A stretch of 55,621 nt of DNA from a virus. Taxonomy: Duplodnaviria > Caudoviricetes. Shown piece by piece: positions 3,161 through 21,551 of the stretch (position 1 is its first letter; each line of letters begins with the position of its first letter). The stretch is taken from positions 1-55,621 of IMG/VR virus record IMGVR_UViG_3300033153_013781; one strand, 5' to 3'. The translations under genes and the position numbers were made by a program. Below the pieces are notes generated by a model, which did not search any database, was not told the origin of the DNA, and was given only the letters and a program-made list of their open reading frames with translations.

Positions 3161-3331
3161 CTATTTCTTATACATTCTGGACATAATGGTTTCTACTTCT
3201 ATTTCGCGTCTTACCCAATGAAAGGAAGATTCTGTAAGTTGCAGTGCTCGTCGTACAACTTCTCCATTAAGCACTAATGCTTCTGCTTCTGCTTCAACTT
3301 CTTTAAAAATATCCTCAGCGATAGCTAACAT
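3161..3331 (-). CDS. 56-aa hypothetical protein, paralog of the upstream ORF
   Basis: Own translation MLAIAEDIFKEVEAEAEALVLNGEVVRRAL...; resembles AIAVDIFNEV..LNGEIVRRAL. Confidence 0.55.
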   Translation of the reverse strand: MLAIAEDIFKEVEAEAEALVLNGEVVRRALQLTESSFHWVRREIEVETIMSRMYKK

Positions 3332-3768: not shown

Positions 3769-4715
3769 TAGAGTAATCTCGCTCCATCATATTGCCAGTC
3801 ATAGAATAATGTTCCATTTCCAAAAAAGATTAGCGTCCTGATTTCATCTGAAGATGGTTCAACTGTTAAACAATCTGAAACACAAAGATTTTGACCATTG
3901 TAATCATAAACTCGTGCTTCATGAGCACCATTCATAAGCGTCATAATACGAGTAGCATCTCTTTCAATCGTATCACGAATATCTTTTTCTTGATCACTAC
4001 GAAGTCCATGGATACCAACATACTCATCTTCTGGGGTTTGATATAATACATGAAGTCCTTTCGGATTTGGACGACGTATGGGTCGAATTGTCAACTGCTC
4101 AACGCCTTCGTTTTTGCACCAACTGGCTACCTCGTTGACCTTGGCTGGATTGTCAATCATTCCGTCCATCATCATGACACAAAGACGAATGGAATAACCC
4201 AAATCATGTAAAAATCTTATCGTACGGTCAAGGGCAGGATATGGTTTACGATAAATACGCTCGTTATGTTCTTGAGCAATTCCAACTGTAGAAATAGCAA
4301 TGGTATTAAGTCCTAATTCTTTCCATTCTTCGAGATGCGTTTGGGTAGTACGGATATATTTTTCATATTTTTCAACCCCTATCTGCGTCGTCCCATGAAT
4401 TTTAGCCAAATACCCAATCTGAATCGCATTGGTCTGCAATTCAATGAATGGAAATTGATCTTTTAATTGATGGAGATAAAATTCAATCTCATCTGGATAA
4501 AGAGTTGGTTCGCCTTTGCCCGTAAGAAGGACGGTTGTTGTTCCGCACATTTTAGCAAGCTGTATTGCTTTGTTAAGGTTTTGGCTAAGGTTTGTATGAT
4601 TGATTCCTGGATTTTTGGGTAGATTTTCAAACTTTGTCATATGCGAAACACAAAATGGACATGCTGCATCACAAGCCGATGTCCCAACAACGATTGAAAA
4701 TGTTTGAATTTTCAT
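3768..4715 (-). CDS. radical SAM protein
   Basis: CDAACPFC (CxxxCxxC) and TGKGEP motifs. Confidence 0.9.
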   Translation of the reverse strand: MKIQTFSIVVGTSACDAACPFCVSHMTKFENLPKNPGINHTNLSQNLNKAIQLAKMCGTTTVLLTGKGEPTLYPDEIEFYLHQLKDQFPFIELQTNAIQIGYLAKIHGTTQIGVEKYEKYIRTTQTHLEEWKELGLNTIAISTVGIAQEHNERIYRKPYPALDRTIRFLHDLGYSIRLCVMMMDGMIDNPAKVNEVASWCKNEGVEQLTIRPIRRPNPKGLHVLYQTPEDEYVGIHGLRSDQEKDIRDTIERDATRIMTLMNGAHEARVYDYNGQNLCVSDCLTVEPSSDEIRTLIFFGNGTLFYDWQYDGARLL

Positions 4716-5089
4716 GTTAGCTCCAGTTTCATATACTCTTCAGCAGAAATCATGTTTTCAGAATCAATCGAATCAGCTTTCAATTTGACTAACCAACCTT
4801 TTCCAAATGCATCATCATTGATTAATTCTGGATGATCTATCAATTCTTCATTGATTTCGATAATTTCACCGGGCATAGCAGCAAAAATTTCTGATGTAGC
4901 TTTAACAGATTCTACTTCTCCAATGTTACCGTTGACATCTATTTGAGTGCCTACAGAATACAATTCAACGTATGTGATATCTGTGAGAGTATCAGCAGCA
5001 TATTGGGTAATCCCAATTGTTACCGTATCACCCTCAATAAGAAACCATTCGTGAGAATTACTGTATTTTCTGTCTGTTGGTGCATTCAT
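4712..5089 (-). CDS. gcvH: glycine cleavage system H protein
   Basis: SHEW..GITQYA..VESVKA (lipoyl Lys)..GKGWLVK. Confidence 0.95.
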   Translation of the reverse strand: MNAPTDRKYSNSHEWFLIEGDTVTIGITQYAADTLTDITYVELYSVGTQIDVNGNIGEVESVKATSEIFAAMPGEIIEINEELIDHPELINDDAFGKGWLVKLKADSIDSENMISAEEYMKLELT

Positions 5090-5093
5090 AGTA

Positions 5094-5166
5094 TGGCCCT
5101 GGAGGGATTCGAACCCTCAACATTTACTTTAGAAGAGTAATGCTCGTCCGTTTGAGCTTCAGGGCT
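5094..5166 (-). tRNA. tRNA-Arg(TCT)
   Basis: Anticodon arm TTACT-CTTCTAA-AGTAA; T arm GAGGG-TTCGAAT-CCCTC. Confidence 0.9.
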
Positions 5167-5195
5167 ATTGTACTGGATATGGCTAGAAATGTCAA
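5167..5195 (-). promoter_or_regulatory. sigma70-type promoter
   Basis: TTGACA-N17-TACAAT; the -10 box abuts the tRNA-Arg 5' end. Confidence 0.6.
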
Positions 5196-5209
5196 GCCTA
5201 AAATTACAC

Positions 5210-7354: not shown

Positions 7355-8372
7355 CAGCAGGTTGGAGTAATTTCTCGCGTTTTTTTGCTCTATTTTCTCT
7401 TGAACGATCAGAAATTACTGGAGCAACTGGAGCAAATTGAGCAAATTGTTGTACAGGTTGTTGTACAGGTTGCTGTGGTTGAATCCTTTCAACAGCTTCA
7501 CCTTTTACTGTAAATACCTTTTCAACGAGATCTATAAAGAGAGGTAATAAATTTGTTTGTTCGTGGGCTCCTCCAAATTGATTTAAATCAACGGCAAGAT
7601 GATAATTTGTAGTGGCAGATACATTATCAAATCTGATCAAAAACTTAGAGACGCTTTGACTTGATACTTCTCCTGATTCTATTCTTTGCATAGCAGCATC
7701 TATGGCAGAAGTATCGTATTGTAGTTCTGTAAAAATTTGTTTCAATTCAGGAATTTGTTCAGGATTCAATCCTACCACCAACCAGTCATTAGGCAAAAGT
7801 TTAGCGTTACGTTGTAATGCTATACCTAATCGAGTTTGTATAGCGTGCCGAATAGGATTGTAAGCTTTGGCATTAGCATCGAGACCAGAAAAAAGAAAGG
7901 CTCTTTGTTTTTCAGGAATGTGAGAAGTCCAACTGAGAGCATAATTAGTTATGTTTCCTTGCTGTGGCATCATCTCAAAACGGGTTACTTTTTGACCCTT
8001 AGCATGTCGTCGATTTACTTGTTCTTGTGCCTGTTGTTCTCGAAGTTGTTTTCGCTGATTCAATTCACCGTTAAGACGATTTGTTTCAGCTCGTAAATGT
8101 GGAGCCATATTTTGAATATTGGCCAAACAATCCTGAATCACTTTGGCGGATAATAAAGCCTGTCCATTATTCTGTAAAATTAAATTTGTACCAGGATCAT
8201 TTTGAATTGCGTTGAACCAATATACACGGGATGGATCTTGGGATGGATTGGCTAAAATCTGATTAATCATGGTTTGTAGGCTATTTATGTTGGAAACCCC
8301 AAAGGAAACAGCGATTTCGCCGCCGTGAGCAGCTTTTTTTTCCATTTGAAATAATCGAAGGAGCCAATTCAT
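7245..8372 (-). CDS. probable N-terminal part of the SNF2 helicase (frameshifted)
   Basis: Overlaps the helicase ORF by 110 nt in a +1 frame offset; start MNWLL chosen. Confidence 0.65.
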   Translation of the reverse strand: MNWLLRLFQMEKKAAHGGEIAVSFGVSNINSLQTMINQILANPSQDPSRVYWFNAIQNDPGTNLILQNNGQALLSAKVIQDCLANIQNMAPHLRAETNRLNGELNQRKQLREQQAQEQVNRRHAKGQKVTRFEMMPQQGNITNYALSWTSHIPEKQRAFLFSGLDANAKAYNPIRHAIQTRLGIALQRNAKLLPNDWLVVGLNPEQIPELKQIFTELQYDTSAIDAAMQRIESGEVSSQSVSKFLIRFDNVSATTNYHLAVDLNQFGGAHEQTNLLPLFIDLVEKVFTVKGEAVERIQPQQPVQQPVQQFAQFAPVAPVISDRSRENRAKKREKLLQPAGEYYMQGKSKARFPKIACYEQIRYDRFISKSFDEGF

Positions 8373-8451
8373 ACATGTATTTGCTCCACAAAAAAGCAAA
8401 AACCTGTTTTGTGTCCTTGACTATTTTAGGAAATTATGGTAGATTAGAACC

Positions 8452-8685
8452 ATGGAGCTTTATAAAATCATATTACACAGTTGTGAGGCCGTAGATTTTG
8501 TTGTGGTAACATTTGCTTTACAAAAAGTGATGAACTGGGAATTTATTCGTGCATATCAATTCTGCCAAGAAGCAGATCAGAATGGCACCAGTGTACTCTG
8601 CATTGCTTCTTCTCAAAAAGCTCACGATTATATTTTAGAGCTAGAAGAAGAAGGTGGATTGCTTGTCGAACAAGTTCCAATTTAA
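8452..8685 (+). CDS. clpS: ClpS-like adaptor protein
   Basis: YKIILH..VVVTFALQKV..AYQFCQEADQNGTSV pattern; lacks the usual NDD motif; TTGACT-N17-TAGATT just upstream. Confidence 0.6.
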   Translation: MELYKIILHSCEAVDFVVVTFALQKVMNWEFIRAYQFCQEADQNGTSVLCIASSQKAHDYILELEEEGGLLVEQVPI

Positions 8686-8686
8686 T

Positions 8687-8761
8687 TCTGGGAGAGAGGA
8701 TTCGAACCTCTGACTTCCTGGTTCCGGGCCAGGTACTCTAACCGGACTGAGCTACACCCAG
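8687..8761 (-). tRNA. tRNA-Pro(CGG)
   Basis: CTGGGTG..CTCCCAG A; loop CC-CGG-AA. Confidence 0.9.
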
Positions 8762-8825
8762 TATGTGCGATGACGAGGATGTCATCGCAGAAATGCCAAT
8801 TCGTGCAAATTGACATATGGCAGGT

Positions 8826-9203
8826 TTACCACCACAAACCCCTGAAATTTTTGCCAAAAAGAGTCAAACCTTCCTGAAGTTTCTTGTAATAGATTTTCAC
8901 TTCTTCGTCTGTTAAATCATCAGGATGAATAAAGTCTCCGCCATTACTTTTGGCAATTTGCTCCATAGACCAAATCATCTTGTTGACCATTCGACACCAT
9001 TCTGCATTTCTTCCACAATTTGAACAATCATCGCGGAATTCGTTTTCGTGAAATCTTTTGAGACGTGGAGCTACAAATTTTGCTATTGTGAATTCGAGAC
9101 TGAAAGTATCTTCATCGATGAATCCTTGTTTGTGTCGTTGCTTCCATTCGCGCCAGAATGTTCGAGTAAAGATTCGTGGACGGTAAAAAGTAATCTTAAT
9201 CAT
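8826..9203 (-). CDS. hypothetical phage protein
   Basis: AGGAG RBS; ends GLTLFGKNFRGLWW. Confidence 0.75.
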   Translation of the reverse strand: MIKITFYRPRIFTRTFWREWKQRHKQGFIDEDTFSLEFTIAKFVAPRLKRFHENEFRDDCSNCGRNAEWCRMVNKMIWSMEQIAKSNGGDFIHPDDLTDEEVKIYYKKLQEGLTLFGKNFRGLWW

Positions 9204-9277
9204 GTTATTCTCCTACACAGCGTTGTTGCTGCTCAGAAAATTGTCATTCGATACATATTATTCTCCTTCTTATTAAA

Positions 9278-9352
9278 TCGGGATGAGAAGATTTGAACTT
9301 CCGCTCTCATGTTCCCCGAACATGCGCTTTTACCAGACTAAGCTACACCCCG
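9278..9352 (-). tRNA. tRNA-Pro(GGG)
   Basis: CGGGGTG..CATCCCG A; loop TC-GGG-GA. Confidence 0.9.
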
Positions 9353-9355
9353 TAA

Positions 9356-9428
9356 TACCCTGGACGAGACTCGAACTCGCATTCTCCACCTTGAAGAGTG
9401 GCGACTTAACCAATTTGTCCACCAGGGC
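9356..9428 (-). tRNA. Glu-like tRNA with a 6-nt anticodon loop
   Basis: GCCCTGG..CCAGGGT A; CCACT-CTTCAA-GGTGG. Confidence 0.7.
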
Positions 9429-9433
9429 AAAAC

Positions 9434-9505
9434 TACCCCATGCGAGTATCGATCTCGCTTCTTCTGCCTGAAAAACAGAAATCATAGCCAGTAGACCAAT
9501 GGGGC
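9434..9505 (-). tRNA. tRNA-Glu(TTC)
   Basis: GCCCCAT..ATGGGGT A; TCTGT-TTTTCAG-GCAGA; atypical T loop ATCGATA. Confidence 0.75.
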
Positions 9506-9511
9506 TTAAAT

Positions 9512-9730
9512 AAACATCGCGAAAGTTCTTGTTGCAAGGAATAAACGTAGAGCTCTATCCAATTGAGCTACAGCGGCGTAGTGCCACCGTGGGTATCCGA
9601 CTCTCCGAATATTTATGGATATGCCGTATTCCTGGTGGCGAAATAGAAAAGCCGCTGACAGGACTCGAACCTGTAACCTCTGGTTTAAAAGACCAATTGT
9701 TTGTATGCACCAAATGTAGGTCGCGATGTC
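9512..9730 (-). ncRNA. circularly permuted tRNA-Lys(TTT)-like / YrlA-like RNA
   Basis: 3' half (9650-9694) precedes 5' half (9549-9577); ends pair ACATCGCGA/TCGCGATGT. Confidence 0.85.
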
Positions 9731-9733
9731 TAA

Positions 9734-9804
9734 AGCGTCCGACGAGAATCGAACTCGTATTTTAACGTTGGCAACGTTATGTAATACCACTATACCACGG
9801 ACGC
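9734..9804 (-). tRNA. tRNA-Gly(GCC)
   Basis: GCGTCCG..CGGACGC T; TAACG-TTGCCAA-CGTTA. Confidence 0.9.
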
Positions 9805-9810
9805 ATATAA

Positions 9811-9971
9811 AACATCGCAAAAGTTTTTAATGCTGAAATAAACTATGCGCTCTGCCAATTGAGCTATCTCCCGTGAAAACCGATTGTCGTAATCGGGAGA
9901 ACAGGATTCGAACCTATATCACATCCTCCGAATGGAATTGTTTGTATGCATTAACCATTGGTTGCGATGTC
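9811..9971 (-). ncRNA. second circularly permuted tRNA-like / YrlA-like RNA (Pro-type acceptor)
   Basis: 3' half (9893-9936) precedes 5' half (9846-9873); ends pair ACATCGCAA/TTGCGATGT. Confidence 0.85.
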
Positions 9972-10685
9972 TTAAATTATTTTATATTTTTTTGCCCATT
10001 TTCGAATAGTATTATCAGAAACTCCGTATTTCCGACCGATAGCACACCATGAAGAACTCTTTATCATCTTAGCCAAAGCTTGCTTTGATGGACGATCAAC
10101 TTTGCGAAAACGGCTGTTATCTATTCTAAAACATTTGTGACACATTCCAGTTTTTGCTTTACGGGATACTTCTCCATTACATTTTTTGCATTTGATCGGA
10201 GGTCTTTTATTTGCTCTTCCTGCGAATGTCGATTGTTGACTATTACAATTTGGACATAATAATCGTAAATTTTCTATTCTGTTGTCGTCTCTTGTTCCAT
10301 TTATATGGTCTAATACTAAAACTAACAATTTCCCTTTCCATATCGGTTTTTGACAACATGTTGAGCATATGTTCTTCAGAATGTTGTCATTTATAAGCCT
10401 TGTTTTTAAATGACCACGATCAAAGGTGGAATTTTTAACTAGCAATTGTTCGAGAGGCATTTTCTCTTTAGGAAATTTTCTACCTTTTACAGAAATTAAA
10501 ATATGAGAGAAATCAATTTTATCATCTGCGAGTCTCTTTTTTAAACTCCTAAATCGGCTTCCGCCATTCGAAGGACACAACCCTAGTTCAATAAGAATTT
10601 GGGAATATGTTTTGCTTCTTTTGACTGCTTCTTTCAAATGTTGTTTTGATATTGTCCATATTGGACTAGTTTTTATTTTATTCAT
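9972..10685 (-). CDS. HNH endonuclease with C-terminal HTH
   Basis: LDHINGTRDDNRIENLRLLCPNC; SWCAIGRKYGVSDNTIRKW. Confidence 0.9.
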   Translation of the reverse strand: MNKIKTSPIWTISKQHLKEAVKRSKTYSQILIELGLCPSNGGSRFRSLKKRLADDKIDFSHILISVKGRKFPKEKMPLEQLLVKNSTFDRGHLKTRLINDNILKNICSTCCQKPIWKGKLLVLVLDHINGTRDDNRIENLRLLCPNCNSQQSTFAGRANKRPPIKCKKCNGEVSRKAKTGMCHKCFRIDNSRFRKVDRPSKQALAKMIKSSSWCAIGRKYGVSDNTIRKWAKKYKII

Positions 10686-10767
10686 ATGTTCTCCAATAAT
10701 GATTATACATTACTTAGAGACCACACTGGTAACACTCCTTTTTTATTTTTTGGAGTTCTGCCACTAA

Positions 10768-10838
10768 AGCATCTAGCGGGATTTGCACCCGCGCCGTCAC
10801 TTTGGAAGAGTGAAATGCAACTACTACACTATAGACGC
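10768..10838 (-). tRNA. tRNA-Gly(TCC)
   Basis: GCGTCTA..TAGATGC T; TCACT-CTTCCAA-AGTGA. Confidence 0.85.
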
Positions 10839-10921
10839 ATAACGCACCCATTATACAATATCGCATAATGGGTGCGATTGTAGACATCCTAAATTAAACC
10901 CTATTCAATTTTTTATAACCG

Positions 10922-10997
10922 TTGTTTTGACCTTTTTGTTGACGTCAACAAAATGGTGTTAACCATTTTCCTGATGCCAGGAATATGGTCAAAACAA
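10922..10997. repeat. branched palindrome (two hairpins inside a terminal inverted repeat)
   Basis: TTGTTTTGACC..GGTCAAAACAA encloses TTTTGTTGACGTCAACAAAA and ACCATTTTCCTG..CAGGAATATGGT. Confidence 0.7.
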
Positions 10998-11040
10998 ATT
11001 AATGTCCACAGAGTCTTGCCGTAGCTCACTGCTTCTTCGG

Positions 11041-11238
11041 TTATCCTACTTTTGTTACTACCTTAACCACAGCTTTATAAATACCGTAGTAAGGACCTAA
11101 ATCTTTAGTTAATTGATCCAAATCTTCTTGTGCTTCTGATTTAGTCCAATGCATTTTCATGTTAATAGTTTTTTCAATGCCCGGAATTTTTTTATCTTTC
11201 CGATTGGTCATAATCAAAAAAACTTCTGTATCTTTCAT
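11041..11238 (-). CDS. hypothetical protein
   Basis: Start MKDTEVF with GGAG RBS after tRNA-His. Confidence 0.6.
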   Translation of the reverse strand: MKDTEVFLIMTNRKDKKIPGIEKTINMKMHWTKSEAQEDLDQLTKDLGPYYGIYKAVVKVVTKVG

Positions 11239-11249
11239 AATTACTCCAA

Positions 11250-11322
11250 TCCCGGCAGTGGGATTCGAACCCATCTCTTACTGTTCCACAGACAGTCGTG
11301 CTTCCATTTACACCTTACCGGG
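11250..11322 (-). tRNA. tRNA with His(GTG) anticodon
   Basis: CCCGGTA..TGCCGGG A; ACTGT-CTGTGGA-ACAGT. Confidence 0.85.
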
Positions 11323-11637
11323 TTTTCTTAGATGTCCCTCGTCCCTCGTTAACATCGCCCATAATTCTAATTCAAGTTCAATAGCATCTTGAATCGGTTG
11401 AGGTATTTTAAGTTCTCTATTTACAAACGTTTCCTTCATACGTCGCAGATTAAATTTCAGTGAATCTATCGGTGTCATTCCCGGTGAATTCCCAATCGTT
11501 CTCATAATATTTGCAATTCGTTCTATTCCTTCTTTCGTACAACAAATCTTCAAATAGAGCCATTCAGAATATTCCGGACTCGTAATACGACGAGGTCTTT
11601 TTGTTTTTGCAAATACTTTTTTAATTTCTTCAATCAT
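11308..11637 (-). CDS. hypothetical protein (stop inside tRNA-His)
   Basis: 109 aa ORF between tRNAs. Confidence 0.6.
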   Translation of the reverse strand: MIEEIKKVFAKTKRPRRITSPEYSEWLYLKICCTKEGIERIANIMRTIGNSPGMTPIDSLKFNLRRMKETFVNRELKIPQPIQDAIELELELWAMLTRDEGHLRKPGKV

Positions 11638-11639
11638 AA

Positions 11640-11714
11640 TCGTGACGGAGGGATTCGAACCCGTCTGCCTCTCGCTTATGAAACGAGCGCTCTAACCAAT
11701 TGAGCTACGTCACG
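11640..11714 (-). tRNA. tRNA(CAT), elongator Met or Ile2
   Basis: CGTGACG..CGTCACG A; CTCGT-TTCATAA-GCGAG; no initiator features. Confidence 0.85.
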
Positions 11715-11744
11715 TCAAACCGCTGAGCGTTACTCTTGTCGGAT

Positions 11745-11816
11745 TCCACCCTTATCCATAAGTTTGACCCGATACGGATTACACCAAGCAACTCGGGTCA
11801 ACGTTACTTGGAAGTG
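11745..11816 (-). ncRNA. candidate kissing-loop RNA element
   Basis: Two hairpins whose loops TTGACCCGA and TCGGGTCAA are complementary. Confidence 0.55.
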
Positions 11817-11827
11817 CTAACACTAAA

Positions 11828-11898
11828 AGCCTCCTGAGAGAATCGAACTCTCGTCCGCTGTTTACAAAACAGCAATTCTTCCATTGAACCAAGGAGGC
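11828..11898 (-). tRNA. tRNA-Thr(TGT)
   Basis: GCCTCCT..AGGAGGC T; GCTGT-TTTGTAA-ACAGC. Confidence 0.9.
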
Positions 11899-11942
11899 AC
11901 GATGGATACCCGAAAGTACCCAAAGCGATCCGGCAAACAAAA

Positions 11943-12020
11943 TGTAGTGAACGGGTGACGATCCCGCGTCTTCAGGGTCCGTCACCCTGATGATTTCTCC
12001 AAACCGTAATCTACCACCAC
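11943..12020 (-). tRNA. atypical tRNA (loop centre ACG, Arg?)
   Basis: GTGGTGG..TCACTAC A; 6-bp stem TCAGGG-TGACGGA-CCCTGA; T loop ATCGTCA. Confidence 0.6.
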
Positions 12021-12084
12021 AAATAGAGGTCCCGATTATTTCAACCCATTCAGCCGCTCGGGACCACACAGCTTCCGGAGTATC

Positions 12085-12109
12085 TGGAATCATAGAGAAT
12101 CGAACTCTA
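12085..12109 (-). pseudogene. tRNA 3' fragment
   Basis: TAGAG-TTCGATT-CTCTA-TGATTCC-A with no 5' half adjacent. Confidence 0.6.
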
Positions 12110-12110
12110 G

Positions 12111-12329
12111 TTAATTTTTCGTTGTCTCTTTGGTAACTTTATCAACCCAATGGCTACACCCATCATCTATTTTTACAAGAGGACGCTCCCAAGTCGAGTA
12201 AGTATTCTTCACTCGACCTTGATGTTCTACCGAAACAGGAGGATTTAGATAACACACATGTTTCCCTGCGCTCGTTGTTGTTTTCTCTTCTTCTATCTTC
12301 ATGTATTGACAATTTTCACATTTGTTCAT
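12111..12329 (-). CDS. small Cys-containing protein
   Basis: CENC..CYLNPP..RPLV..DGCSHW; AGGA RBS. Confidence 0.7.
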   Translation of the reverse strand: MNKCENCQYMKIEEEKTTTSAGKHVCYLNPPVSVEHQGRVKNTYSTWERPLVKIDDGCSHWVDKVTKETTKN

Positions 12330-12339
12330 AACAATTTCC

Positions 12340-12927
12340 TTATGTTAATTCCTTAATTTTGTTCCGTGGAGTTAAGACTTTGTAATCAAATATCCATACT
12401 CCATTCACTTTTTTCAGATGCCTAACAGCGTGACAACTGTAACAAACTACTTCTAAGTTAGACATTTTATTGTTTTTTCTATTACCATCTTTATGGTGAA
12501 CTACAAGTTTATATTTTTTCTTTTCGCAACATCCGACACATCCTTTTAAGAACTTTTTTTTGCATTTTTCTCGATATGAATATTCTCCATATCCGGTTCC
12601 ATAATGTGCGGGCTGTATTGCTTTGCAATCTCCTTCTAAACTTTGAGCAAAATCCTTACATTTTCTGCCACAAAAATAAACTCCATGTTTTGAATTTTTA
12701 AGTTTTGAAGGAGTTATTTGCTTGCTCTTTTTGCAAATCTCACATTTTACAATTACTTTGTTTTGTTTCGCTTTAGCAGCACATGCTGTGGTGCAGTATC
12801 TCTTTTTTCCGTATCCTGGATTCGGCTTAAGTCTACGAATAAATTCAATATTACAAATTCCACAATTTGCTTTTTCTCCTTTTCTTTTATGTCCGTCGTT
12901 CTCGCAAAAAAATACTATTTCATTCAT
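12340..12927 (-). CDS. HNH endonuclease with Zn fingers
   Basis: VHHKDGNRKNNKMSNLEVVCYSCH. Confidence 0.9.
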   Translation of the reverse strand: MNEIVFFCENDGHKRKGEKANCGICNIEFIRRLKPNPGYGKKRYCTTACAAKAKQNKVIVKCEICKKSKQITPSKLKNSKHGVYFCGRKCKDFAQSLEGDCKAIQPAHYGTGYGEYSYREKCKKKFLKGCVGCCEKKKYKLVVHHKDGNRKNNKMSNLEVVCYSCHAVRHLKKVNGVWIFDYKVLTPRNKIKELT

Positions 12928-13009
12928 AATGAATCCCCTAATAATCTATTAGAAGATTCGTTTAAATTTTGGAAGACTCCTCTTTTGCTCCAAAGATTTT
13001 ATATTCCAC

Positions 13010-13081
13010 TGGAAATATTCGGGTACGATCCGAAAATTTTGCCGTGCAAGGGCAATGTGATCCCAATTTCACCATATCCCC
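13010..13081 (-). tRNA. tRNA-Ala(TGC)
   Basis: GGGGATA..TATTTCC A; TTGCC-CTTGCAC-GGCAA. Confidence 0.8.
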
Positions 13082-13085
13082 TTAA

Positions 13086-13134
13086 CCCGCAGTTCGAGAC
13101 CGTCTTGACCTGACCTGCGGGGACATCAGTCTCG
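13086..13134 (-). ncRNA. candidate pseudoknot with HDV-like topology
   Basis: CGAGACT/GGTCTCG, CCCGCAG/CTGCGGG and GTC/GAC nested pairings. Confidence 0.5.
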
Positions 13135-13151
13135 GGACGGAAATTTGTTAT

Positions 13152-13349
13152 TCATTCTTCCTTTGAAAGCCGTGCAGCTCTTTCATTTTCTCGCATAATG
13201 GTTTCATACACTTCCTTGCGATGAACCGATATGTTTTTTGGAGCATTGATGCCGATACGAACTTTATCACCTCGTATATCGACTATCTTTATTTCGATAT
13301 TATCTCCAATCATAATTGTTTCTTCACGTTCTCTTGACAATACTAACAT
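13152..13349 (-). CDS. csrA: carbon storage regulator CsrA
   Basis: [34 protein letters not shown]. Confidence 0.97.
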
Positions 13350-13361
13350 TTTTGAATCCTT

Positions 13362-13565
13362 TCATTTTTCTGGCTCTTCCTTGAAAGCCTTGACTGCACT
13401 TTCGATCTTCTGAACGAAAGCGTTATGACATTTTGCACAAAGAAGACCTTTCCAGAGTCCTTTGTCCAGTATTAAATCACATTTCCAAACGAGTTCGAAA
13501 AAATTGATGAATCGCTTGGTTTTTGATGCTTTTAATGCTATGCCACATTTAGAACACTTGCTCAT
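13362..13565 (-). CDS. small Zn-binding hypothetical protein
   Basis: CSKC..CAKCH; GAAGG RBS. Confidence 0.65.
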   Translation of the reverse strand: MSKCSKCGIALKASKTKRFINFFELVWKCDLILDKGLWKGLLCAKCHNAFVQKIESAVKAFKEEPEK

Positions 13566-13581
13566 TGGTCTTGTCCTTCGA

Positions 13582-14301
13582 CTAAATTATTTCATACTGT
13601 CGTGCCCATTTTCGAACGGCGTTGTCAGAAACTCCAAATTTACGACCAATGGCACACCAAGATTCTTCATCTATCATTTTTTTAAGCTGTTCCTTTGACG
13701 GTCTTTTGCATTTTCTCTTACTAATACTACAGCATTCTGGAGAGCAGTATCTAACAGAATGATATTTAGGCAAAAAAGTTTTTTTACAGTGAATGCATTT
13801 TTTCTTAACAATCTTATTTTGTTTTTCGCATTTTTTCAATGTTAACTCGCGATCTTTTGCATATGGTTTGTCATGAACTTCTGCATGACAATTTTGACAA
13901 AGCAAATCGCATTTATCAACTTCTTTCTTTACCACTTTCCACGATCTACAATGTCCATATCTGGAGATTGTAAAATCTTTTTGTTTTGGATCTCTGTGAT
14001 GGAATGCATATGCCCCAGGAACAGGTTTGTCATAACCGCACAAAATGCATTTGCCACCTTTATAAGCAAAAAGTTTAAGTTTCTGTTTTCTTCTCCATTT
14101 TGTTACACTTATTACCCATCGTTTTCTTTTGCGTTTTAATTTTTCCTCATTAGTATTGTCATCATTCAAAGCGGAACGAGTATTGTGCTTATTGAATGGA
14201 GAACAATCTAAGCAAAATTTTCGCTTTTGAAGGTTCCTGATTTTTCCGTCAATTTCAATCTTGTTCTTAAAATCTTTACTGCATTTTTTGCATGTTGGCA
14301 T
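13582..14301 (-). CDS. HNH endonuclease with C-terminal HTH
   Basis: FHHRDP..CDLLCQNCHAEVH; SWCAIGRKFGVSDNAVRKW; start MPTCKK. Confidence 0.9.
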   Translation of the reverse strand: MPTCKKCSKDFKNKIEIDGKIRNLQKRKFCLDCSPFNKHNTRSALNDDNTNEEKLKRKRKRWVISVTKWRRKQKLKLFAYKGGKCILCGYDKPVPGAYAFHHRDPKQKDFTISRYGHCRSWKVVKKEVDKCDLLCQNCHAEVHDKPYAKDRELTLKKCEKQNKIVKKKCIHCKKTFLPKYHSVRYCSPECCSISKRKCKRPSKEQLKKMIDEESWCAIGRKFGVSDNAVRKWARQYEII

Positions 14302-14367
14302 ATGTATACCCCTTTCAGGGTTACATACGTCGAACTGTAGTCTAAAACCTTTAACAAAATTGTTAAC

Positions 14368-14455
14368 CTCCAAGGGCTGGATTCGAACCAGCGATGGGAC
14401 TTGCGTCACGCCTGATTAACAGTCAGGTGCCTGCTACCAACTCGGCTACCTTGGA
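14368..14455 (-). tRNA. tRNA-Asn(GTT) with long variable arm
   Basis: TCCAAGG..CCTTGGA G; CCTGA-CTGTTAA-TCAGG; 18-nt variable region with GAC-GCAA-GTC. Confidence 0.85.
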
Positions 14456-14470
14456 TTAAGGGATTAATCT

Positions 14471-14490
14471 CTATTTAATTTTCAAAGAAC
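14471..14490 (-). promoter_or_regulatory. boxA-like antitermination site
   Basis: GTTCTTTGAAAATTAAATAG; similar copies at 15847, 16408, 17149 (-) and 20931 (+). Confidence 0.6.
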
Positions 14491-14500
14491 TATCAATTTG

Positions 14501-14540
14501 ATGGAAGAATTCGAACCTCCACCAATTGAACTATCTCGGA
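14501..14540 (-). pseudogene. internally deleted tRNA remnant
   Basis: TCCGAGA-TA-GTTC-AATTGGT fused to GGAGG-TTCGAAT-TCTTC. Confidence 0.5.
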
Positions 14541-14562
14541 TCATATTTACTTTTCAAAAAAC

Positions 14563-14796
14563 TTAATAGCCTAAAAAGTTAGCTATTTTCTTTTTGGTTC
14601 GTTCTGCTTTTCTTAATATTTCTCGCAACTCCCAGTCTGGTACAATTTTTACATTTTTTATGTTGTGCCATTCTGTTGAACCGTCATATATTCGTTCAGT
14701 TAGAATCAGATGTTCTTGTTGTTCTGAATATTTTTTTGCAAGAAATAAATCAGATCCATCACCATTAACTCTACAAATCGATCCGATTTCTATCAT
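14563..14796 (-). CDS. hypothetical protein
   Basis: 77 aa ORF with AAGGA RBS. Confidence 0.65.
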   Translation of the reverse strand: MIEIGSICRVNGDGSDLFLAKKYSEQQEHLILTERIYDGSTEWHNIKNVKIVPDWELREILRKAERTKKKIANFLGY

Positions 14797-14815
14797 GATC
14801 TATCCTTAATAAAAA

Positions 14816-15099
14816 ATTCGTTACCGTCGCTATCACGGTCTACGGGCTCCGACGCGATTAAGCTTTAGCCCGCGTGCTTCCACTTCCTAACTTTCATATT
14901 CAGCATTGAGTCTTGTGAACTTGAGCCTGTCCAGACTTTCTTCTGGCTCACGGTTTTTTTAAAGCATAATCGCATGTTGCTCTTCTTAAGTTCTCGCCAC
15001 TATTTCGCAAATATTAATCGGTCATCTATCAATGATACATGACGTACTAATATTGCTTTTCCTGAATATATACTCGCTTCGGCATTACACTATAACGAA
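14816..15099 (-). ncRNA. 284-nt tRNA-framed structured RNA
   Basis: Acceptor TTCGTTA/TAACGAA; D stem GTGT/GCAC around a ~200-nt insert; 15/16-bp long-range pairing. Confidence 0.75.
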
Positions 15100-15101
15100 A
15101 A

Positions 15102-15176
15102 TCCGGGAGAGAGGACTCGAACCTCCAACCTCAGGCTTCCAGAGCCCGCCGTCTAGCCAATTGACATTACACCCGG
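15102..15176 (-). tRNA. tRNA-Pro(TGG)
   Basis: CCGGGTG..CTCCCGG A; CGGGC-TCTGGAA-GCCTG. Confidence 0.85.
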
Positions 15177-15179
15177 TTA

Positions 15180-15198
15180 TCGGAGTGACAGGATTTAA
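15180..15198 (-). pseudogene. tRNA-Pro 3' fragment
   Basis: AAATCCTGT-CACTCCG-A. Confidence 0.55.
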
Positions 15199-15242
15199 TA
15201 ATTATTAAAAGGAATCCATCACGATTTTTCCTAAAGTACTAT

Positions 15243-15854
15243 ATGCAAAAAATACAATGCTTTCAATGTAAGAATAATTTCATTCCCAATAAAGATCATA
15301 AATATGATCACAAAACAAGAGGAATGCGTCGTTCATTTTGCACTCAAAAGTGCTACAGAGCCGCTCAAGATAGTCGAACCATTATTTCTTGTGCTAATTG
15401 CGGAAACAAAAAATCAATTACTGCCTCAGATCGTCGTCAATCCAAAAGTGGTCGATCTTTCTGCAACAAATCTTGTGCCGCTACTTACAACAATAAGCTG
15501 AAAAGAAAAGTTCGCAGATCAAAATGCGAAATAGCTCTATTTCAAATGCTCACTGATGCATTCCCAAAAATTACCGTCCTTCCTAACAACAAAACTATGC
15601 TTGATGGCTATGAAGTTGATATTGCTGTCCCTTCAATAAAATTAGCTATTGAGTGGAATGGAATAGTCCACTTTAAGCCTATCTACGGACAAATGAAACT
15701 TAATAAGATTCAACAGCGAGATGCTGAGAAACAAAAAATTGCATCAAATAAAGGAATAAATCTTATCATTATTTCTGATCTTGTTTCTACTCAAACTCGT
15801 GTTAATGAAGCTTTTGTAGAAATTCAAAAAATCATTAAGCAACTTACTATTTAA
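15243..15854 (+). CDS. Zn-finger + PD-(D/E)XK (Vsr/DUF559-like) endonuclease
   Basis: YEVDIAVPSIKLAIEWNGIVH..RDAEK; N-terminal CxxC..FCxxxC repeats. Confidence 0.8.
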   Translation: MQKIQCFQCKNNFIPNKDHKYDHKTRGMRRSFCTQKCYRAAQDSRTIISCANCGNKKSITASDRRQSKSGRSFCNKSCAATYNNKLKRKVRRSKCEIALFQMLTDAFPKITVLPNNKTMLDGYEVDIAVPSIKLAIEWNGIVHFKPIYGQMKLNKIQQRDAEKQKIASNKGINLIIISDLVSTQTRVNEAFVEIQKIIKQLTI

Positions 15855-15868
15855 TTTTCAAATAACAC

Positions 15869-15943
15869 TCCGGGAGGAGAGATTTGAACTCTCAGTCTCA
15901 GCGTCCCAAACGCTGCGGATTAACCAGATTTTCCTATACTCCG
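15869..15943 (-). tRNA. chimeric tRNA-Pro(TGG) with mispaired acceptor stem
   Basis: CAGCG-TTTGGGA-CGCTG intact, but 5' CGGAGTA pairs poorly with 3' CTCCCGG. Confidence 0.65.
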
Positions 15944-16317
15944 TATCTTTCTTCCCAATGCAATATTCTGTGACATTTGCAACAGAGTGTTTCACACTTA
16001 GATATTTCCTTCTTGATTTTATCTATTGACATTCCTCTGCGTGAGGCATCTGCAATAGTAAAATCTTTTTCTCCTTTGTTATGGTGAAAATCCAGAACTC
16101 TAAAATCGTCTTCGCCACACTTTTTGCATATTAATTCTTTTTTGAATTCATTCAACCATATCCTAATTTTACGCCGTCTTATATTTTTCGTCTCTTGATA
16201 GCATTTTTGGCATTTCCATCTTCGATATTCTTTGCCTTTGACAATATTGGCTATCTCAAATTTCTTTATCGGACATCTGGTATTACAATACTTGCAAATT
16301 CTTGTTTTTGGTTCCAT
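15934..16317 (-). CDS. HNH endonuclease
   Basis: CKKCGEDDFRVLDFHH..CETLCCKCHRILH. Confidence 0.9.
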   Translation of the reverse strand: MEPKTRICKYCNTRCPIKKFEIANIVKGKEYRRWKCQKCYQETKNIRRRKIRIWLNEFKKELICKKCGEDDFRVLDFHHNKGEKDFTIADASRRGMSIDKIKKEISKCETLCCKCHRILHWEERYGV

Positions 16318-16424
16318 TGAAATTTACCTCCAATAGAATATTCCAAAACAATCACCTGTTCTCCTTTGGGATACCAGATCGTTTCCCCAAACATTTTTAT
16401 TTCCACATATTTGATTTTCAAAGA

Positions 16425-16452
16425 GCGGATTACCAAATTTTCCTACACCCGG
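16425..16452 (-). pseudogene. tRNA-Pro 5' fragment
   Basis: CCGGGTG-TA-GGAAAATTTGGTAATCC-GC. Confidence 0.65.
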
Positions 16453-16682
16453 TTTATTTTCTTTCTTCCTACATGCCAACCATTACAAAACCGACATCTA
16501 TAATGCTCCAATGAGTTTCTTGTGCTTTCCTTTGCATTCATTTCTTTTGCTGCTCTAATTGCAGAAGATTCTTTTGGATACATAATTTTTATTTCACAAG
16601 AATAATGCCAATCGATTATGGAGGTATATTTAATAATACATCGATAAATAAATTCCCATAACCATCGCATTTTCATTCTCAA
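16443..16682 (-). CDS. hypothetical protein (YRCxxCxGWHVG)
   Basis: Zn-ribbon-like C-terminus. Confidence 0.7.
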   Translation of the reverse strand: MRMKMRWLWEFIYRCIIKYTSIIDWHYSCEIKIMYPKESSAIRAAKEMNAKESTRNSLEHYRCRFCNGWHVGRKKINRV

Positions 16683-16755
16683 TAGGCTGAGTGGGACTCG
16701 AACCCACGATTTCTTCCTTATCAGGGAAGCGATTTTGCCACTAATCTACCAGCCC
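16683..16755 (-). tRNA. tRNA-Ile(GAT)
   Basis: GGGCTGG..TCAGCCT A; CTTCC-CTGATAA-GGAAG. Confidence 0.9.
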
Positions 16756-16972
16756 TCTTTTTTACTATCACTGTCACTGCTAATGGTTGTTCATTTTCAT
16801 CAACATCGATACAGATTTCTCCCCAGTCTTCGATGTAAGCCAATTTTGTATGATGTGCTTCACCGATTTCAACTGGTTTAAATTCTGCATCATAAATCAT
16901 AAGCATAGAGTCATCGTTACCTTTTATTTCGGTAACAAATGATTTTGTATTATTAGTTATCATTTTGCACAT
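16721..16972 (-). CDS. hypothetical protein (stop inside tRNA-Ile)
   Basis: GAGG RBS before MCKM; reads into the tRNA up to a TGA in the anticodon loop. Confidence 0.55.
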   Translation of the reverse strand: MCKMITNNTKSFVTEIKGNDDSMLMIYDAEFKPVEIGEAHHTKLAYIEDWGEICIDVDENEQPLAVTVIVKKRAGRLVAKSLP

Positions 16973-16986
16973 TTTATTTACCTCAA

Positions 16987-17057
16987 TAACCCTGGCGAGA
17001 TTCGAACTCACACTAAAATCTTCGCAGGATCTCGTGCTTCCATTACACTACAGGGTT
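16987..17057 (-). tRNA. tRNA-Arg(GCG)
   Basis: AACCCTG..CAGGGTT A; AGATC-CTGCGAA-GATTT. Confidence 0.85.
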
Positions 17058-17061
17058 CTAA

Positions 17062-17135
17062 TGGGCGAGGTGGGACTCGAACCCACATAACACCTCCGTG
17101 TAAGAGAGGCACTTGGCCAATTAAGTTACACGCCC
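17062..17135 (-). tRNA. tRNA-Val(TAC)
   Basis: GGGCGTG..CTCGCCC A; CCTCT-CTTACAC-GGAGG. Confidence 0.9.
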
Positions 17136-17181
17136 TATTCTACACTACCTATGAAATTGTCAAAAAGCAAGGTTAATCCAT

Positions 17182-17227
17182 AAAAAAAGCCCCATGAATC
17201 CGTTGTCGGACTCATGGGGCTTTTTTT
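17182..17227 (-). terminator. intrinsic terminator / attenuator hairpin
   Basis: GCCCCATGAGTCCG-ACAA-CGGATTCATGGGGC followed by T7. Confidence 0.9.
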
Positions 17228-17241
17228 GTCTTTCGACAGCC

Positions 17242-17370
17242 TTACAAGTCCGCACCTCCTGGCACGTTGCCTGTATTTTCGCTCATAGGCGCAATACGGG
17301 CTGCGGGGGATACTGTGGTCCCTTGATGCCGTTGCGATTGTGAGTTTGACTGTCTATTATTGATGAACAT
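17242..17370 (-). CDS. 42-aa leader peptide of the tRNA operon attenuator
   Basis: Own translation MFINNRQSNSQSQRHQGTTVSPAARIAPMSENTGNVPGGADL; AAGGA RBS; 3' end complementary to the terminator stem. Confidence 0.8.
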   Translation of the reverse strand: MFINNRQSNSQSQRHQGTTVSPAARIAPMSENTGNVPGGADL

Positions 17371-17423
17371 TATATTTCCTTAAATTTCGGCTCAAAAATA
17401 CGTTAATTTGAGCTTGTTTTAGA

Positions 17424-17451
17424 AGTATACGATATTATACCGTAATGTCAA
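17424..17451 (-). promoter_or_regulatory. sigma70-type promoter of the tRNA operon
   Basis: TTGACA-N16-TATACT. Confidence 0.75.
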
Positions 17452-17787: not shown

Positions 17788-18222
17788 ATGATGTATGATG
17801 TTTACCTTGGGGGCGTTACAGCGCCCGAATGGCGTAAAGAATTCAGAGATAATGTTAGTTCTGACATTTCTATTTTCGATCCTTATATCGAAACATTTAC
17901 GAAGTATAACAAGCACGATAAAGCAGAGCAAATTGCTCGTGAATTTCACTTCATGGAAGAATGTGATATTGTTGTTTTTTATTTTAATTCAAAAACAGCA
18001 AAATCTGCTCGACTTCAGCTTGGAGATGCCGTTGGACACGACAAACAAGTGATTGTTTGTTTGGACGGAAAAGTCCCTGGCAAAACGTTTATCAAACGAT
18101 ATTGTGAATTTCGTGGAATCATTATGGTTGATTCTGTGGAGGATCTCGTTGCTACTGTAGAAGAGTGTGCAGCTGAAGTAGAATTGTGTCAATTGTCAGA
18201 ATTTGACAACATTCACAAATAA
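17788..18222 (+). CDS. nucleoside 2-deoxyribosyltransferase-like protein
   Basis: VYLGG..WR..IFDP..E..CDIVVFYF pattern. Confidence 0.7.
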   Translation: MMYDVYLGGVTAPEWRKEFRDNVSSDISIFDPYIETFTKYNKHDKAEQIAREFHFMEECDIVVFYFNSKTAKSARLQLGDAVGHDKQVIVCLDGKVPGKTFIKRYCEFRGIIMVDSVEDLVATVEECAAEVELCQLSEFDNIHK

Positions 18223-20160: not shown

Positions 20161-20196
20161 TCTTGCAAATTATTTTTAAAAAATCCAGGAATCTGC

Positions 20197-20225
20197 TTGA
20201 CATTTGTGGTATAATGAAGTATAAA
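20197..20225 (+). promoter_or_regulatory. sigma70-type promoter
   Basis: TTGACA-N17-TATAAA, also an internal TGnTATAAT. Confidence 0.7.
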
Positions 20226-20290
20226 TTAAACATACGTCATTTTGACGTTTCGGGTGGCTTTCGGGCCATCTACTTTTTTGGAGAAAAATT

Positions 20291-20338
20291 ATGCGTATTA
20301 CCCGAAAATCTATATTTAAGAAAAGGACTCGGGGATAA
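20291..20338 (+). CDS. 15-aa leader peptide of second attenuator
   Basis: MRITRKSIFKKRTRG; GGAG RBS; 3' end complementary to the terminator stem. Confidence 0.7.
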   Translation: MRITRKSIFKKRTRG

Positions 20339-20361
20339 GGTACGCCTACATAAGGAATATC

Positions 20362-20395
20362 AACCCTCGATCACTTAGGTAGTCGAGGGTTTTTT
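20362..20395 (+). terminator. intrinsic terminator / attenuator hairpin
   Basis: AACCCTCGA..TCGAGGGTT followed by a T run. Confidence 0.8.
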
Positions 20396-20401
20396 CGTGT
20401 T

Positions 20402-20959: not shown

Positions 20960-21265
20960 GGGCTCCTAGCTCAATTGGTTAGAGCAAACGACTCATCTAT
21001 ATGGTGCGTTCATAAGGAAACTTTTGAAATGAACGGGATGAATTCAGGGGAACCTCAGCATGTAATGATGGTGGCAATCCTGAGCCAAGCCTGCGGTACA
21101 CCGCAGGAAGGTGCAGAGACTAGTGGAGAGGTATAGTCCTCTTAATAACCACATTAGCGTCCCGCGTTCTAACGTAAAGTCGAGGATGGTGATATAGTCC
21201 AGCGAGTCAAGAAATTGACATTAAGCTGAATCGTTAGGTTGTGGGTTCGAGTCCCACGGAGCCCA
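20960..21265 (+). tRNA. tRNA-Ile2(CAT) interrupted by a group I intron
   Basis: GGGCTCC..GGAGCCC A; exons join to AACGA-CTCATAA-TCGTT. Confidence 0.9.
20997..21228 (+). mobile_element. group I intron (IC3-like), 232 nt
   Basis: AATCCTGAGCCAAG, GTGCAGAGACT and GATATAGTCC core motifs; exon U pairs with IGS GTG; ends in G. Confidence 0.92.
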
Positions 21266-21551
21266 GTTCTAGTAACTTGTTGTCGAATTCCCAATGGCAA
21301 TTTCGACAGAATAATAGTAAGTTACTGTTAGCGTTGACTTCAGCAATAGTAGCAATTGGAAGGAAATCGGAGATTGGTTTAATGTGACAGGTTTCTACGT
21401 GTTTATTGTAACTACAGTTGAAACATACTTGGGGACGCGATTTTGTCTTCTTGTAAATTAACCTTTGATAAGGAAGTGGGAAAACTTCTAAAAACCTGCT
21501 ATGATCAATGGGTAGCTTATTATCGAAATGAACGAATAGGAATTTATTCAT
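21234..21551 (-). pseudogene. HNH endonuclease remnant
   Basis: CFNC..VETCHIKPIS..NLLLFCRNCHWEFD; N-terminus looks degraded; antisense to the tRNA 3' exon. Confidence 0.65.

Follow-up and report, generated by a model that had tools for sequence, protein, structure and literature searches.

When does a phage switch on the tRNA genes that it carries? To our knowledge, the control of phage tRNA genes is almost unknown, and we know of no tRNA genes placed under leader-peptide attenuation. The question is raised by a 55.6-kb virus contig from a large uncultured phage (IMG/VR record IMGVR_UViG_3300033153_013781, 55,621 nt, G+C 37.7%; "the window" refers to the whole of this stretch), in which a promoter, a short open reading frame (ORF) and a terminator at 17182-17451 on the minus strand precede a large tRNA array. 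An earlier note on this DNA had proposed that the ORF samples the codons read by the whole tRNA pool and that loss of any tRNA stalls the ribosome and switches on replacement tRNAs. From comparison of sequences and predicted structures, we consider it likely that the element is a ribosome-mediated transcription attenuator of the leader-peptide type heading a leftward, tRNA-rich operon, and that the phage probably makes more tRNA when ribosomes read slowly.

Genomic context

ARAGORN placed 20 tRNA genes on the minus strand of the window, all lying within positions 31-17135, along with two plus-strand genes, and Rfam added one more. HNH endonuclease ORFs are interspersed among the tRNA genes, and the contig also encodes a helicase and a long ribonucleotide reductase ORF. 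The element lies back to back with a rightward gene at 17788-18222 (PF15891 family), and strand bias flips near 17.5-18 kb, which indicates that the element heads a leftward transcription unit. The first genes under its putative control are tRNA-Val(TAC) and tRNA-Arg(GCG), predicted at 16987-17135 on the minus strand, with tRNA-Val starting 46 nt past the T run of the terminator. From there, the operon continues to the left end of the window with 18 more tRNA genes, and many protein genes also lie within it. The tRNA array is cut by the contig end.

Parts of the element

The promoter, the AAGGA ribosome-binding site, the 42-codon leader, the GAAA hairpin and the 14-bp terminator with its T7 run, all listed in the earlier note, were recovered at the same positions on the minus strand. 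A promoter scan detected TTGACA (17451-17446) and TATACT (17429-17424) separated by 16 nt, thus spanning 17424-17451, with a conserved GTATAAT in the spacer and an A/T-rich stretch upstream. This site scored 11/12 and was the second-best promoter-like site between 8000 and 19000; given that the same scan returned 36 sites where 35.0 were expected, the promoter match alone is little proof. The signature TTGAC-N6/7-GTATAAT-N4-TAT, on the other hand, occurred twice in the window against 0.00 expected, with its second copy at 20197 on the plus strand. It was found at 12 places in 11 loci, heading nine relatives of the element (hereafter type 1) and coinciding with the promoter of a second kind of element (type 2) in L029 and L028.

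Downstream of the promoter, both the minimum free energy (MFE) and the centroid fold contained a hairpin in the 5' untranslated region (GCTCAAA...TTTGAGC, 17390-17413); inspected by eye, relatives show a hairpin of different sequence at the equivalent position. The Shine-Dalgarno sequence AAGGA (17377-17381), which forms a duplex of -6.1 kcal/mol with the anti-Shine-Dalgarno sequence, is located 6 nt before the ATG at 17370. The leader ORF, MFINNRQSNSQSQRHQGTTVSPAARIAPMSENTGNVPGGADL, occupies 17242-17370 with 42 sense codons followed by TAA (17244-17242). A mid-ORF hairpin recognized by eye, CCCGTATT ... AATACAGG (17270-17300), underlies the conserved IAPM.ENTG codons, and by eye has a perfect 9-bp version in L001 and a different 6-bp version in L008.

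Four segments define the predicted switch. The candidate segment 1, GACAGTC (17348-17354, codons 6-8), could form a helix with the GGCTGTC that directly follows the stop codon. Segment 2, CGGACTTGTAAGGC (17239-17252), is the 5' strand of the antiterminator and includes the stop codon together with the two sense codons before it; it resembles the 3' arm of the terminator and is in effect a copy of that arm with the stop codon inside. The spacer hairpin TGTC-GAAA-GACA (17227-17238) forms in the folds as the tip of the antiterminator stem-loop, and most relatives have a small predicted spacer hairpin of unrelated sequence. Segment 3, GCCCCATGAGTCCG (17207-17220), is the terminator 5' arm, common to terminator and antiterminator, while segment 4 is the terminator 3' arm, CGGATTCATGGGGC (17202-17189), with a T7 run (17188-17182) behind it. 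The terminator has 14 pairs including one G-T, a loop of ACAA, and A7 and T7 flanks. A simple terminator scan did not pick it up, probably because the A/T extension consumes the T tail. The 251-nt leader as a whole folded at -82.7 kcal/mol (z -5.72), and none of 200 shuffles folded as well.

Between the terminator and tRNA-Val, inspection by eye revealed a candidate weak promoter on the minus strand (17137-17170), consisting of TTGCTT (17170-17165), 17 nt and TAGTGT (17147-17142), or alternatively of TTGACA (17163-17158), 15 nt and TAGAAT (17142-17137). The pattern TTGnnn-N17-TAGTGT was kept in all four sequences checked by eye (the window, L001, L005 and L007); it falls within a small ORF in L001 and L005, such that its conservation may stem from coding. 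With such a site just before tRNA-Val, the array may not depend solely on readthrough. The candidate promoter overlaps a boxA-like site (17169-17157), also proposed earlier, which agrees with the rrn boxA consensus at 11 of 13 positions. Three such matches occur in the window where 3.17 are expected by chance, and visual comparison suggests a poorer match in L007 and L001 and none in the far group of relatives (see below); with its match at chance level, we place no weight on the site as a signal.

Conservation in related loci

Relatives were sought through the neighbouring PF15891 protein, which had 50 homologues, 20 of which made up alignment A1. The search based on A1 led to 32 loci, 29 from metagenomes, two from IMG/VR and one, short, from a genome (L062). 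Using blastn and two nhmmer profiles, we found that 15 of these 32 loci contain the whole element, promoter and terminator included. Many of the other 17 are contigs of 1-2 kb and may lack the relevant upstream DNA. The 15 fall into a near group (L001, L003, L005, L006, L007 and L008) and a far group (L010, L016, L019, L020, L022, L026, L027, L029 and L062). In all 15 elements that have downstream DNA, a tRNA gene of the same orientation lies behind the element, within 250 nt in 11 of them; in L008, it is a cut gene 2.3 kb away. The terminator was kept in the 15 type-1 elements that contain this stretch, L003 being cut by the contig end. A G+C-rich hairpin with a T run was present in all 13 type-1 and five type-2 elements that were folded, and was seen by eye in L027 and L062.

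The earlier note had made conservation of the leader in homologous loci a test of its reading, and the short ORF was indeed retained. A frame of 23-44 codons, starting with ATG or GTG and lying behind a Shine-Dalgarno-like site, was present in 16 of 16 type-1 elements (window included), and a short ORF in 21 of 21 elements when both types were considered, 17 of which have an anti-Shine-Dalgarno duplex of -4 kcal/mol or better. L026 appears to be nearly leaderless. Despite indels, ORF lengths vary by whole codons. Codon differences among near-group leaders amounted to 369 nonsynonymous and 119 synonymous changes, with 0.31, 0.28 and 0.42 differences per site at codon positions 1-3, and the peptides of the near and far groups are barely alignable. 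Retention of the ORF together with poor conservation of the peptide fits a leader that needs to be translated rather than one that encodes a folded protein, and the peptide sequence itself seems to be only weakly constrained. A search of a protein database returned no relative of the leader peptide, and it had no PHROG match. The near-group peptides do retain the motifs IAPM.ENTG..PGG.DL, which by eye partly overlap the mid-ORF hairpin, and the peptide could have a function of its own.

Beyond these loci, the element was hard to find. A phage collection contained no close relative by DNA, with a tRNA match only, and no match to the neighbour protein and helicase. IMG/VR yielded nothing for the neighbour protein alone, for the terminator sequence or for the far-group pattern, and the promoter signature was not found in one further record searched. 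A looser motif gave 30 IMG/VR loci that we treated as chance, given that none matched the element profile apart from L049, which had a marginal 23-nt match (E 0.043). Four public DNA runs matched only contigs of relatives carrying variants, in one of which positions 17138-17233 are replaced by 252 other letters. Among public runs, none of RNA was listed as containing the sequence.

Alternative pairing of the leader

The earlier note had described a 9-bp pairing between the last leader codons and the terminator 5' strand. This pairing was verified: CGGACTTGT (17252-17244) pairs with ATGAGTCCG (17215-17207) through seven Watson-Crick and two G-T pairs, and the helix extends by three further pairs (GGC with GCC) beyond two A-C mismatches. 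In the window, the antiterminator duplex reached -16.9 kcal/mol, with four of 200 shuffles as good.

To examine the relatives, terminators were defined by folding, and the best upstream pairing partner of the 5' arm was then sought; L027 and L062 were left out of the segment 2:3, segment 1:2, covariation and truncation tests. In 13 of 13 type-1 elements, the best partner in the upstream transcript was the stop-codon region, including L016, where the stop is shifted 9 nt downstream and the best-partner window ends 2 nt before it. At most nine of 200 shuffles were as good as this duplex in nine of the 13 elements, and 65, 37, 23 and 18 of 200 were as good in L007, L006, L010 and L022, respectively; given that the sequences are related and that the structure was derived from the same sequences, the shuffle controls overstate significance. 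The earlier note had also called for a search for covarying leader/terminator pairs, and these were detected. On a MAFFT alignment (A2), the terminator was 91.7% paired, with eight pairs changed on both sides, and the antiterminator was 85.1% paired, compared to 21-47% when slid by 1-3 columns. Four antiterminator pairs and ten cells were changed on both sides, a result reached by none of 500 shuffles. The window's GGACTTG/TGAGTCC, for instance, corresponds to GAGTTG/CAACT in L019 and to GGCTTG/CAAGCC in L006. Paired changes in the terminator stem, at 17213/17196 and 17214/17195, were also observed in the relatives' contigs from the public DNA runs. The attenuator geometry of ORF, terminator and stop-region pairing is therefore kept in relatives with compensatory changes.

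Folding of the two conformers, likewise suggested earlier, gave a concordant picture. For transcripts truncated where segment 3 ends, the MFE structure joined this segment to segment 2 in every one of the 13 elements, and mean 2:3 pair probabilities were 0.52-0.98. The antiterminator is much weaker than the terminator and could win only kinetically.

A second element with the same logic

The second copy of the promoter signature belongs to a shorter, type-2 element on the plus strand (20186-20396), which heads the other tRNA group. Behind hairpins and a GGAG, it contains a 15-codon ORF, MRITRKSIFKKRTRG (20291-20338), followed by a terminator (20364-20395). Homologues occur in four loci (L001, L021, L019 and L029). 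This family is not homologous to type 1 and yet follows the same logic: the best partner of the terminator 5' arm was the end of the ORF in five of five elements, with sequences differing in each. In the window, two small ORFs lie behind the type-2 element, along with a tRNA(CAT) gene that a group I intron interrupts and the genes for tRNA-Phe and tRNA-Lys; the element lies ahead of two tRNA-Phe genes in L021 and of several ORFs and two tRNA-Lys genes in L029.

Proposed mechanism

The geometry of these parts and their conservation suggest that the ORF is translated, in which direction the switch operates, and that its outcome is a kinetic race. The strong sigma-70-type promoter would produce a leader of roughly 230 nt carrying the translated 42-codon ORF. 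Segment 2, which takes in the final two sense codons, the stop codon and 5 nt beyond it, could pair with segment 3, the small GAAA hairpin being the tip of the resulting antiterminator stem-loop. Across the elements, segment 3 begins 23-32 nt beyond the stop codon, and we reason from this distance that a terminating ribosome would mask both segment 2 and the spacer hairpin at its base and leave segment 3 free. If a ribosome is at the stop codon while polymerase makes segments 3 and 4, segment 2 would be covered, the terminator would form, and transcription would stop 46 nt short of tRNA-Val. With no ribosome there, or with one that lags or has stalled upstream, segment 2 would capture segment 3 first, the stronger terminator would come too late, and polymerase would continue into the tRNA genes. 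Given that a ribosome arriving on time would mask the antiterminator, transcription of the tRNA genes would be coupled inversely to the speed at which the leader is decoded. What the element would sense is then how far the ribosome trails polymerase across 42 codons, and since any slow codon would add to this lag, the codon-sampling idea gains some substance.

Codon content of the leaders

Whether the leaders are also tuned to particular tRNAs is a separate matter. The codon counts given in the earlier note were reproduced for the type-1 leader of the window (leader 1), which has 33 distinct codons in 42, including all four Gly, three Pro, three Ala and three Arg codons, and no Lys codon. Compared to phage codon usage, 33 distinct codons is high (mean 27.0, P 0.008; 0.9% of 572 real windows), whereas compared to uniform usage it is ordinary (mean 30.5, P 0.18), and in the relatives codon diversity was unremarkable, with P between 0.05 and 0.99. 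Given that the diversity equals that of uniform codon use, we rejected it as a signal, and the conserved codon diversity expected ahead of related tRNA arrays did not materialize.

The idea that leader 1 mirrors the downstream tRNAs fared better. In tests that were post hoc, drew on related sequences and concerned an array cut by the contig end, the minus-strand tRNAs read 32 of 41 leader-1 codons compared to 52.9% of phage ORF codons (P 0.0008), and amino acids were enriched in the leaders in 9 of 12 cases with an array tRNA against 1 of 8 without (P 0.02). With base composition controlled, the latter comparison became 5 of 12 against 2 of 8 (P 0.64; rank test P 0.012). Leader 1 lacks the AT3 bias of the genome (GC3 0.50 vs 0.27), and much of the leader-tRNA match follows from its G+C-rich composition. 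It has no tandem run of one codon, and its correspondence to the downstream tRNAs is compositional only.

The two leader types do differ in composition. Phe and Lys codons made up 1 of 41 codons in leader 1 and 4 of 14 in the type-2 leader of the window (leader 2; Fisher 0.012). In pooled type-1 leaders, Lys accounted for 6 of 589 codons against 28.1 expected from base composition, and in pooled type-2 leaders for 16 of 92 against 5.7 expected, with nine Phe codons against 2.8 expected and an ATA codon in each leader. Exceptions are L062, with a Lys/Phe-rich leader ahead of tRNA-Val, and L010, with a single Phe codon ahead of tRNA-Phe; in addition, Ser is the commonest leader residue, and the sequenced part of the array has no tRNA-Ser. 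The earlier idea of a leader sampling the entire tRNA pool is thus only partly supported: it retains the codon match seen in the window and loses the argument from diversity, with L062, L010 and Ser standing against it.

We regard tuning of leader codon content to the controlled tRNAs as possible, if doubtful. A broader idea, which we put forward tentatively and hold to be somewhat unlikely, is that large phages autoregulate their tRNA supply via codon-matched leader-peptide attenuators, one mini-gene per tRNA operon, composed mostly of codons that the tRNAs of this operon read. Leader 1 is rich in Gly, Ala, Pro, Arg, Thr, Asn and Gln codons and free of Lys codons, and leader 2, ahead of tRNA(CAU), tRNA-Phe and tRNA-Lys, is rich in Lys, Phe and AUA codons. 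Slow decoding, caused by host codon mismatch, starvation or anticodon nucleases, would delay the ribosome and free the antiterminator, and exactly the scarce tRNAs would be switched on. If this were true, the logic of the trp operon would operate with the same tRNAs as sensed molecule and product.

Alternative explanations

The same parts could in principle be wired as trp-like superattenuation, in which segments 1 and 2 of an untranslated leader pair, the terminator forms, and readthrough follows only from a stall on codons ~1-12, so that few codons would be sensed. In accordance with this, in 8 of 13 elements the best partner of segment 2 starts no further than 22 nt into the ORF, and 1:2 pairing is strong in L019, L020, L029 and L022, where 0-4 of 60 shuffles were as good. 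The segment 1 motif, which reads CCTACAAC in far-group and GACAGTC in near-group elements, points the same way, given that CCTACAAC is kept irrespective of frame, being read differently in L020 than in L019, L016 and L026. However, the 1:2 helix was 67.5% paired across 14 sequences with almost no covariation, and in the window, where segment 1 is the best partner of segment 2 (-15.8 kcal/mol), 25 of 60 shuffles were as good; truncated transcripts favoured 2:3 over 1:2 in 13 of 13 elements. Pairing of segments 1 and 2 thus appears weak, and we consider this wiring quite improbable. With a weak 1:2 helix, an untranslated leader would here probably read through rather than superattenuate. The frame-independent motif would also suit a switch made of RNA alone, be it a riboswitch, a T-box-like tRNA sensor or a protein-binding leader, in which a ligand, tRNA or protein stabilizes either conformer and the ORF is incidental. 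A leader of G+C 0.50 within a window of 0.377 that folds far better than its shuffles, with a mid-ORF hairpin that appears conserved by eye, is what one would expect of such an RNA. This reading nevertheless has to treat as coincidence an ORF with a ribosome-binding site in all elements and a stop codon in or beside segment 2, and the interval from segment 1 to segment 2 is conserved between groups neither in sequence nor in length. Moreover, at E up to 1, neither 17182-17451 nor 20186-20396 matched any Rfam family, known leaders and T-box included. We therefore hold an RNA-only switch to be very improbable.

A third possibility concerns the ORF itself, which might be an independent small early gene that encodes a peptide or a small RNA, is driven by a promoter of its own and ends in a constitutive, insulating terminator, the tRNAs being transcribed from a downstream promoter. 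An abundant, stable RNA of ~230 nt would be expected from the strong promoter, the 5' hairpin and the highly stable terminator, peptide motifs are kept in the near group, and the TTGnnn-N17-TAGTGT site described above (window, L001, L005 and L007) could serve the tRNA genes. There are also precedents for RNAs and peptides that derive from attenuators and act in their own right (PMC6614838; PMC7968998). Such a gene would leave unexplained the pairing of the stop region with the terminator in 13 of 13 type-1 and five of five type-2 elements, with its compensatory changes, as well as the divergence of the peptide between groups while ORF and pairing persist, and it has no protein relative in the searches described above. 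We consider it improbable. A ribosome-mediated attenuator, in comparison, would account for the retained ORF and the retained pairing together.

Relation to known attenuators and significance

In the trpL, hisL, leuL and pheL attenuators, a short translated ORF precedes a terminator and an antiterminator that shares a strand with it, and a ribosome that finishes the ORF blocks the antiterminator. The phage element resembles them in its short promoter-proximal ORF, its intrinsic terminator, its strand-sharing antiterminator and the placement of its stop codon. It departs from the enterobacterial amino-acid leaders in that the genes predicted to be controlled encode phage tRNAs instead of biosynthetic enzymes, and in the greater length of its ORF, whose 42 codons include no stretch repeating a single regulatory codon; its 1:2 helix is weak, and no Rfam leader family matches. 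The nearest precedents for a mixed set of codons are multivalent attenuators, in which one leader reports several amino acids or tRNAs: the thr leader with its Thr and Ile codons, and the ilvGMEDA and ilvBN leaders with Leu, Val and Ile codons. These have clustered repeats of two or three amino acids, whereas here about 16 amino acids are spread over the leader and the output consists of tRNAs.

The ermK, bmrCD and vmlR leaders, which were found by Term-seq, sense ribosome slowing without a special codon run, and the phage element would likewise sense general slowing in a short ORF through competition between terminator and antiterminator. They differ in that they answer drug-stalled ribosomes and control resistance genes, and we know of no attenuators of this type before tRNA genes or in phages. 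T-box riboswitches also report tRNA status through a terminator/antiterminator decision. They bind uncharged tRNA directly, without a leader ORF, and control synthetase and amino-acid genes, unlike the element described here, in which ORF and Shine-Dalgarno sequence are conserved and for which Rfam holds no T-box match. In our literature searches, we found no description of leader-peptide-type control of phage or bacterial tRNA genes. It is well supported by the predicted structures and their conservation that the design is that of a leader-peptide attenuator, and the element differs in the predicted regulation of tRNA genes, the absence of a clustered regulatory codon and the lack of an Rfam match.

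The presence of two leader classes within one genome provides a built-in control for specificity, and the element, as a compact and ligand-free sensor of translation speed, could possibly be of use in synthetic biology. If our reading is true, it would explain how tRNA arrays could stay silent when they are not needed, and the long-debated roles of phage tRNAs, namely compensation of codon usage and escape from tRNA-cleaving defences, would become testable with a small reporter. The phage would then gauge the decoding speed of its host directly and respond with tRNA.

Second leader element and its tRNA genes

We found a second promoter-leader-terminator element on the plus strand (20186-20396), which carries the same promoter signature as the first element, the one heading the minus-strand tRNA array, and belongs to a different sequence family. 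Its leader ORF comprises 15 codons, rich in Lys, Arg, and Phe (20291-20338, +), and is followed by a terminator (20364-20395, +) whose 5' arm is able to pair with the end of the ORF. Homologues were detected in four related loci (L001, L019, L021, and L029). In the window, this element heads a plus-strand group consisting of a tRNA with anticodon CAT, tRNA-Phe, and tRNA-Lys.

A group I intron (matching Rfam Intron_gpI at 20984-21221, +, with 94.2 bits) appears to interrupt the anticodon loop of the CAT tRNA gene (about 20960-21268, +). This split gene was not called in the ARAGORN scan of the window. Candidate identities for the tRNA are an elongator Met tRNA and an AUA-reading Ile tRNA, and another tRNA-like start lies nearby at 20881.

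Variation and possible inserted elements in the tRNA array and beyond

The interval between the first element's terminator and tRNA-Val varied among relatives. A small Cys-rich ORF separates the two in several of them, including L001 (region 1020-1200, minus strand of that locus), L005 (545-765, -), and L027 (1475-1645, -), and is absent from the corresponding interval of the window (17137-17234). The contig of a relative, seen in two public runs, has 252 other letters in place of window positions 17138-17233.

Within the array, ARAGORN reported an ambiguous two-letter anticodon for the tRNA at 9355-9429 (-; Rfam tRNA score of 52.9 bits). By eye, its anticodon loop is seemingly one base overlong with TCA inside, so that the tRNA may be of a suppressor-like or frameshifting type. 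An additional tRNA (15872-15942, -) was found by Rfam only (41.1 bits), with anticodon TGG (Pro) as read by eye. A weak Y RNA-like (YrlA) match at 9824-9954 (-) scored 29.4 bits, well short of the gathering score of 69, and is probably due to chance.

At least four HNH endonuclease ORFs are interspersed among the tRNA genes between 9972 and 16317 (15934-16317, 13582-14409, 12340-12927, and 9972-10685, all -), as if homing endonucleases had colonised the array. Elsewhere, both ends of a 1490-aa ORF (31693-36165, +) match the ribonucleotide reductase large subunit. The central part has matches to the helicase, primase, and endonuclease families, a pattern suggestive of at least one intein or of homing-element insertion.

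Host domain of relatives

The contigs that carry relatives (loci L029 and L062, and protein P0021) are very long, with 522 kb in the case of L029, and some of the corresponding record titles refer to archaeal genome bins. Despite these titles, their elements have bacterial-type promoters, Shine-Dalgarno sites, and intrinsic terminators. The probable explanation is that these relatives are large bacterial phages that ended up in bins with archaea.
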